From a virus (taxonomy: Duplodnaviria > Heunggongvirae > Uroviricota > Caudoviricetes): a stretch of DNA of 5,077 nt. The stretch is taken from IMG/VR virus record IMGVR_UViG_2713896779_000031; one strand, written 5' to 3'. A program made the position numbers and the translations under genes. A model generated the notes under the pieces. That model was not told where the DNA came from and searched no databases. It worked only from the letters and a program-made list of their open reading frames with translations. Shown here in pieces: positions 4,859-5,077 of the stretch. Numbering within the stretch: the stretch's first letter is position 1; each line of letters starts with the position of its first letter.

Positions 4859-4888
4859 TTGATACTGTTTATCCATACAGTTAAAAAT
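4859..4888 (+). promoter_or_regulatory. putative sigma70 promoter of the dinI-like gene
   Basis: -35 TTGATA (4859-4864), then a 17-18 bp spacer and an A-rich -10 candidate (TAAAAA/AAAAAT at 4882-4888). The -10 is weak, so this is low confidence. Confidence 0.4.
4865..4880 (+). promoter_or_regulatory. LexA box 1 (SOS box), CTGT-N8-ACAG
   Basis: taCTGTttatccatACAGtt fits the LexA consensus CTGT-N8-ACAG with flanking TA. It sits in the promoter spacer. Confidence 0.7.
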
Positions 4889-4892
4889 AACA

Positions 4893-4908
4893 CTGTATAC
4901 AAACACAG
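4893..4908 (+). promoter_or_regulatory. LexA box 2 (SOS box), CTGT-N8-ACAG
   Basis: aCTGTatacaaacACAGta is near the consensus TACTGTATATATATACAGTA. It lies 12 bp after box 1, just downstream of the -10 candidate and 16 bp before the start codon. Confidence 0.75.
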
Positions 4909-4923
4909 TATAGAGAGATTTTT

Positions 4924-5077
4924 ATGCGTATTGAAATTTGCATAGCCAAAGAAAAAATCAGCAAAATGCCAAAAGGATCTGTTCCTGCCCTACAGCAAGA
5001 AATGCTGTGACGTGCCAGTAAACGTTATGACGATGTAGAAGTGATCATCAAATCCACCAGCAACGATGGCCTTTCAG
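4924..5077 (+). pseudogene. dinI-family SOS gene interrupted by in-frame TGA at 5008-5010; runs off the window end
   Basis: N-terminus [11 protein letters not shown]... resembles E. coli DinI (MRIEVTIAKT..., from memory). After the TGA the same frame stays open to the window edge (RASKRYDDVEVIIKSTSNDGLS), still DinI-like in register. RBS GAGAG 6 nt upstream. The interruption may be a nonsense mutation or a sequence error; a real 28-aa product is not excluded. Confidence 0.55.

Follow-up and report, generated by a model that had tools for sequence, protein, structure and literature searches.

[quoted passage not shown] Its codon 29 is a TGA, which arose from an ancestral CGA (Arg) codon by a single C-to-T transition, and this stop mutation is fixed in a prophage remnant across several EHEC/STEC serogroups. 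Taken as a whole, the observations are best explained by a fixed, unitary nonsense pseudogene of an SOS-regulated, dinI-like accessory gene of a prophage, and we hold this account with high confidence. The public RefSeq annotation already marks this allele as pseudogenic because of an internal stop.

The region under study (positions 4859-5077) begins with cTTGATACTGTTTATCCATACAGTTAAAAATAACACTGTATACAAACACAGTATAGAGAGATTTTTATG, followed by an open frame. The first-pass annotation had proposed that two LexA boxes located 12 bp apart overlap a promoter in this region, and our analysis bears this out. The LexA pattern CTGTNNNNNNNNACAG has exactly two exact matches in the 5077-bp window, compared to 0.03 expected by chance, and none of 200 shuffles of the window contained two or more. 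LexA box 1 (CTGTTTATCCATACAG, 4865-4880, plus strand) occupies the promoter spacer, and LexA box 2 (CTGTATACAAACACAG, 4893-4908, plus strand) lies over the expected transcription start; both have the exact core CTGT-N8-ACAG. The 12 bp between them (4881-4892) correspond to a distance of 28 bp from centre to centre, and each 20-mer agrees with the LexA box consensus TACTGTATATATATACAGTA at 16 of 20 positions, as counted by hand.

The promoter is sigma-70-like and is overlapped by both boxes. Its -35 hexamer TTGATA (4859-4864, plus strand) was detected by a promoter scan and aligns with the TTGACA of the annotated mEp460 promoter. The -10 hexamer TAAAAA (4882-4887, plus strand), at a spacer length of 17 nt, was assigned by homology to the same annotated promoter (TTGACA-17 nt-TAAAAA); the scan alone combined TTGATA at 4859 with an 18-nt spacer and an alternative -10 hexamer, AAAAAT, at 4883-4888. 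This architecture is conserved in intact, inducible phages. Both boxes are exact CTGT-N8-ACAG sequences with at most two changes in N8 in PhiR12_1, mEp460, CP-1639 and cdtI, box 2 is kept in all five intact phage relatives, the Stx2 phage retains one exact LexA box, and the -35 hexamer is TTGATA or TTGACA in all phage relatives compared. As a positive control, the LexA pattern also matches positions 1750-1765 in the loci of O121 2014C-4423 (L001) and O26 11368 (L002), 29 bp upstream of recN. This recN site belongs to the flanking chromosome and is located approximately 4.4 kb from the boxes of the disrupted gene, which we designate dinI'.

The locus thus has the hallmark of the LexA regulon at the sequence level, an operator of the type CTGT-N8-ACAG overlapping a promoter, and LexA control of the dinI-like promoter appears well founded by homology. 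In Gifsy-2, the product of a dinI homologue accumulates after mitomycin C treatment, and replacement of the LexA-box region abolished this induction (PMC3121763). The promoter described here is intact in sequence; it probably binds LexA and fires in the SOS response without yielding a functional protein.

The gene starts with the ATG at 4924, and its codons 1-28 (4924-5007, plus strand) are sense codons. They are followed by the premature TGA at codon 29 (5008-5010, plus strand), at the place of R27 of E. coli DinI, and by the untranslated rest of the DinI-like frame (codons 30-51 and one base, 5011-5077, plus strand), which runs off the window. After the TGA the frame reads RASKRYDDVEVIIKSTSNDGLS and is open up to the window end, and in identical loci it reaches its natural stop after codon 82 with no frameshift and no second stop. 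All coordinates given in the first-pass annotation for this frame, which was there already described as open and DinI-like after the stop, were confirmed. Instead of an uninterrupted DinI domain frame of approximately 80 aa, the locus has a frame broken at codon 29. Alignments with the five intact relatives revealed in addition a weakened Shine-Dalgarno sequence, GAGAGA (4913-4918, plus strand): the relatives have GAGGG or AGGAGG, and here G is replaced by A at 4916.

The assignment to the DinI family, which had also been proposed in the first pass, is supported by several profile comparisons. The 51 codons in the window match PHROG 189, 'RecA filament binding protein DinI' (E=4.2e-14), and the 82-codon conceptual product, for which the window frame was completed from the 100%-identical O121 locus, does so with E=4.7e-27. 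The same product scores 56.2 bits against Pfam PF06183 (cut-off 24.2) and can be aligned end to end with E. coli DinI in the PDB (1GHH/7YWA; residues 1-81, E=2.6e-10). The similarity extends beyond the stop, on which the earlier reading depended, since the post-stop part alone scores 41.6 bits against Pfam DinI (E=1.6e-10); the 28-aa N-terminal peptide gave no family match by itself in the Pfam search. Because the score against the NCBIfam DinI equivalog NF007893 is 56.7 bits and thus below the cut-off of 111, the gene is a paralogue of chromosomal dinI and not an orthologue. The locus is prophage DNA beside ssrA and not the chromosomal dinI locus.

Other DinI-like proteins of E. coli exist in several variants. 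Forms of 108 and 112 aa contain an internal tandem duplication of approximately 26-30 residues, and in further variants the first 13-16 residues or so are swapped for unrelated sequence (one of these groups, P0016, has 471 member sequences). The variant proteins (P0001, P0003, P0016 and P0059) retain Arg at the position of the stop.

The first-pass annotation had assumed Ser or Thr at codon 29 and consequently a change from TCA to TGA. This does not hold, since codon 29 is CGA in five intact phage genes (PhiR12_1, mEp460, CP-1639, Stx2_14040 and cdtI), and Arg is present at this position in all 21 aligned protein relatives as well as in E. coli DinI. The spread of the stop was analysed with a 55-mer centred on the T of the TGA, so that every 28-nt megablast seed must include that T. 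Of 5426 complete E. coli genomes, 88 contain a copy with 100% identity to this 55-mer, among them O26, O121, O103 and O111:H11 strains, and the 88 copies of the allele are nearly identical to one another. With the CGA version of the 55-mer, only other alleles with at most 91% identity were found in the 5426 genomes, and the TGA version had no match among 50,697 phage records. The best intact full-length relative among 5.8 billion clustered proteins is 90% identical. Six E. coli O121 genomes match positions 4700-5077 of the window with 100% identity, and many O26 and O103 genomes do so with 99.2%; in all five genomes inspected NCBI PGAP lists a 'DinI-like family protein' labelled pseudo, with an internal stop. 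Of the earlier suggestion of a 'recent nonsense pseudogene', the nonsense pseudogene stands, but 'recent' needs qualifying, since the mutation is fixed across O26, O121, O103 and O111:H11, and the searches returned this allele in no form with CGA.

The consequences for the protein can be judged from the RecA-DinI complex. Cryo-EM and mutagenesis defined L13, L21, W71, W77 and F78 of DinI as the pocket for F203 of RecA, and E24, E69 and D76 as an acidic patch (PMC9926225). Their equivalents in the conceptual translation are M15, L23, W73, W79 and F80 (pocket) and E26, D71 and E78 (acidic patch), which means that the residues contacting RecA are conserved or conservatively replaced. Five of the eight (the equivalents of E69, W71, D76, W77 and F78) lie beyond the stop and are hence untranslated. 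With these contacts missing, the 28-residue product should be unable to form the binding groove, and we infer that it has lost RecA binding. Moreover, R54, which is conserved in at least 90% of the relatives and is located outside the window, is Leu in the TGA allele. Both R54L and the change of the Shine-Dalgarno sequence from GAGGG to GAGAG would fit a decay of the allele.

The genomic setting of the gene is that of a prophage end. A copy of the 3' end of ssrA (tmRNA) is located at 4621-4653 (plus strand) and ends with CCA at 4653. It represents the attachment-site core common to the upstream island and the downstream prophage remnant, and can be aligned to the end of the O26 ssrA and to the end of the PhiR12_1 genome. 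Rfam gave a partial tmRNA match at 4560-4653 (model positions 280-374), and ARAGORN detected no complete tmRNA in the window. T4626 in this copy corresponds to a G in genuine ssrA and in the PhiR12_1 end; it is either a scar left by crossover at the att site or has arisen by mutation of a non-functional copy. The following sequence (4654-4858, plus strand) is the left end (att arm) of an ssrA-integrating lambdoid prophage and is collinear with PhiR12_1. The interval between ssrA and dinI is closely similar to that of PhiR12_1 and more diverged in CP-1639. Shortly before the dinI promoter, a terminator scan revealed an intrinsic-terminator-like hairpin (4780-4799) followed by a run of T. Further, a cluster of palindromic and direct repeats (AAAATGCACGT...ACGTGCACTTT, 4743-4772) is located between ssrA and the dinI promoter; it is kept in PhiR12_1 and largely in CP-1639, and is possibly a binding site for integrase (arm-type) or an accessory protein.

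In all five genomes inspected, dinI' comes immediately after ssrA, where a degraded prophage ends, and espK is next. The full gene order smpB, ssrA, dinI', espK was found in O121, O26, O111:H11 and other genomes, in which the stretch immediately behind the complete ssrA gene is the same as positions 4654-5077 of the window. When longer flanks were fetched, espN was the next gene after espK in the O121 and O26 loci. In O121 2014C-4423, espK is split by an IS600 insertion (L001 7132-9760), so that the remnant has decayed further in this genome; O26 11368, CFSAN004176 and O111:H11 have an unbroken espK.

In the window, the prophage remnant stands in tandem behind another ssrA island; ssrA is a hotspot of tandem integration. 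Positions 1-4653 correspond to this small ssrA-integrated island, which encodes an integrase, an AAA-ATPase and an adenine methylase. The tyrosine integrase gene (611-1777) is followed by a gene for a 594-aa AAA_15/AAA_21 ATPase with PtuA/AriA/GajA-like matches (1785-3569) and by a gene for a Dam-type methylase (3649-4548), which matches PADLOC PD-Lambda-5_B over almost its full length (411 bits, E=6e-124). By these similarities, the island looks like an anti-phage defence island of the PD-lambda-5 type. The junction of the island with dinI' is absent from all complete RefSeq E. coli genomes, where the best match covers positions 1-4745. In the assembly collection, 2887 blocks contain the methylase protein; in five of these contexts it is followed by csiD, other integrase islands or IS elements, and never by dinI'. 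Finally, a 98-aa GTG ORF on the minus strand (4610-4906) spans the junction and lies antisense to the ssrA copy, the terminator and the LexA boxes. An exact-protein look-up returned no record of it as a called gene, and it is most likely spurious.

Based on these observations, we propose the following account. Positions 4654-5077 belong to a degraded lambdoid prophage, of which they form the left end; its integration site is the 3' end of ssrA. This prophage arm carries the usual monocistronic accessory ('moron') gene for a DinI-like protein of the RecA-filament-binding type. In intact relatives, LexA dimers would sit on the two operators and cover the promoter spacer and the transcription start. 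[quoted passage not shown] In the present allele, one C-to-T transition has converted CGA to TGA and translation would stop after 28 residues, resulting in a truncated product without the beta-strands and the C-terminal acidic/aromatic helix, in which most RecA contacts are located.

The closest known counterparts are the DinI-like genes of lambdoid coliphages (PhiR12_1, mEp460, cdtI, CP-1639 and Stx-converting phages), which represent the same gene at the same prophage end, likewise next to int/att and tail-fibre or cargo genes. They have the same length of 82 codons and the same promoter with two LexA boxes; PhiR12_1 and CP-1639 also use the same ssrA integration site, and PhiR12_1 shares 92.8% DNA identity with the window allele. 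In contrast to the latter, the coliphage genes are intact: their codon 29 is CGA (Arg), and their Shine-Dalgarno sequence is of the GAGGG type. The window allele has TGA, GAGAG and Leu in place of R54, and only a remnant of the surrounding prophage is left. E. coli DinI (1GHH; RecA complex 7YWA) belongs to the same fold family and is a small, LexA-regulated and SOS-induced protein, but the gene described here lies in a prophage behind two LexA boxes, and its product is cut short at the position matching R27.

In Salmonella, the dinI-antirepressor-irsA operons of Gifsy-1, -2 and -3 are controlled by LexA and induced by DNA damage (PMC3121763). As in the window, the prophage dinI homologue is located there immediately behind a LexA box and promoter, which are preceded by a terminator-like palindrome (PMC3121763). 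However, the antirepressor gene is co-transcribed downstream in Gifsy, whereas the next genes in the E. coli phage relatives are convergent and the remnant has no ORF at this place. Another LexA-controlled relative is Tum of coliphage 186, PSP3 and Fels-2, which contains a DinI-like module, and in PSP3 and Fels-2 its frame is divided by a stop (PMC3121763). That stop makes two genes out of one, each with its own functional domain (antirepressor or DinI), whereas the stop in the window falls inside a single DinI domain and replaces a residue for which every relative examined has Arg.

Several other explanations were considered. One of them, which we regard as unlikely, is that the promoter and not the ORF has been kept, either to make the downstream DNA SOS-inducible (the T3SS effector gene espK in O26/O121-type genomes) or to produce a non-coding RNA. 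In line with this, the promoter and the boxes are unmutated, espK follows approximately 660 bp further on the same strand in O26/O121-type genomes, and a simple scan of O26 11368 revealed no intrinsic terminator between dinI' and espK. However, all relatives have boxes that are just as intact, and in an allele that looks this young their integrity needs no special cause. Rho-dependent polarity would also be expected, as it normally acts on RNA left untranslated after a nonsense codon. The SOS-response data that we found for espK concern O157 only. There the gene is part of another prophage, Sp6, and SOS-inducing drugs lower its expression slightly instead of inducing it. With respect to a non-coding RNA, the sRNA DinR derived from Klebsiella dinI provides a precedent, but it depends on a Klebsiella-specific 3' segment and terminator (PMC10907235). 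An Rfam match to a non-coding RNA of this kind was not found: at gathering thresholds only tmRNA was detected, and only in the O26 11368 locus, and a permissive scan of 4560-5077 returned only the partial tmRNA end and matches at chance level.

The downstream region was also inspected for an operon of the Gifsy antirepressor type, and this possibility was rejected for lack of a co-directional gene behind dinI, both in the remnant and in the E. coli phages related to it. In O26 11368, the approximately 320 bp after dinI' (L002 6474-6799) contain no co-directional ORF of at least 30 aa, and the sole co-directional ORF before espK is a 43-aa TTG ORF at L002 6800-6931. In PhiR12_1, mEp460 and cdtI, the genes next to dinI are convergent.

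A leaky stop seems quite unlikely. According to this explanation, tRNA-Trp would read the UGA-C at a low rate and the SOS response would yield a little full-length protein with Trp29, the gene being tuned down instead of lost. UGA followed by C terminates only weakly in E. coli, the context of the stop is indeed TGA-C, and the frame is unbroken to its natural stop. On the other hand, Trp would be a radical change at a position occupied by Arg in DinI and in 21 of 21 relatives, and the weakened Shine-Dalgarno sequence together with the replaced R54 speaks for decay rather than tuning. In addition, no stimulatory RNA structure follows the stop: the folding of 5000-5077 has a z-score of +0.6, and an equal or better fold was reached by 147 of 200 shuffles. 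By this folding and the Rfam scans, a SECIS element, a read-through stimulator and a known sRNA were rejected as candidates. It is improbable that the double-LexA promoter was co-opted to drive espK, by transcription across the untranslated dinI', in the SOS response of O26/O121-type genomes, or that UGA-C read-through provides a deliberately low dose of a DinI-like protein. If either were true, DNA damage would be tied to the control of a virulence factor or of RecA in non-O157 EHEC.

We find it hardly probable that a fragment of the protein is functional, be it the N-terminal peptide of 28 aa or a C-terminal piece of 43 aa with the RecA-binding helix, which would arise by re-initiation at GTG 5041. 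An in-frame GTG ORF (MIIKSTSNDGLS...) exists at position 5041 of the window, and the resulting piece would keep the equivalents of E69, W71, D76, W77 and F78; however, no Shine-Dalgarno-like sequence precedes this GTG. The 28-aa peptide, without a family match of its own, contains only three of the eight contact residues.

A sequencing or assembly error masking a gene that is intact in the organism, which the first-pass annotation had listed as a possibility, is effectively excluded. The 100% identical 55-mer comes from 88 complete genomes that were finished independently, in many laboratories and on many platforms, and the agreement with the six O121 genomes over 4700-5077, the internal stop reported by PGAP in every genome inspected (n=5) and the failure to find a CGA version of this allele in the genome collection point in the same direction. 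Recoding of the TGA as selenocysteine can practically be dismissed, since the homologues have Arg (CGA) and not Cys or Sec at this position, and downstream of the UGA there is neither a SECIS-like hairpin (z=+0.6) nor an Rfam match.

We return to the fixed nonsense pseudogene and to its possible impact on the host. The first-pass annotation had suggested that the intactness of the gene could affect the SOS response and prophage induction, but a large effect is unlikely. The genomes with the TGA allele carry additional DinI-like copies, with up to seven matching places in one genome and three in each O121 genome, and they also have chromosomal dinI. In the Gifsy prophages, non-polar deletions of the dinI homologues had no significant effect on induction (PMC3121763). 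Because of the redundant DinI-like copies and the lack of a deletion phenotype in Gifsy, an effect on the induction of Stx phages appears unlikely as well.

It is common, and has been documented, for prophages to carry a DinI-like gene behind LexA boxes, and the allele as such matters little. Nevertheless, it is of use in several respects. The TGA allele is a clean lineage marker, one C-to-T transition common to O26, O103, O111:H11 and O121 at the prophage remnant beside ssrA. It further illustrates that a match to an SOS box in a genome scan need not mean a functional SOS gene. Last, as a natural 'promoter without product', the locus could serve as a chromosomal LexA reporter site.
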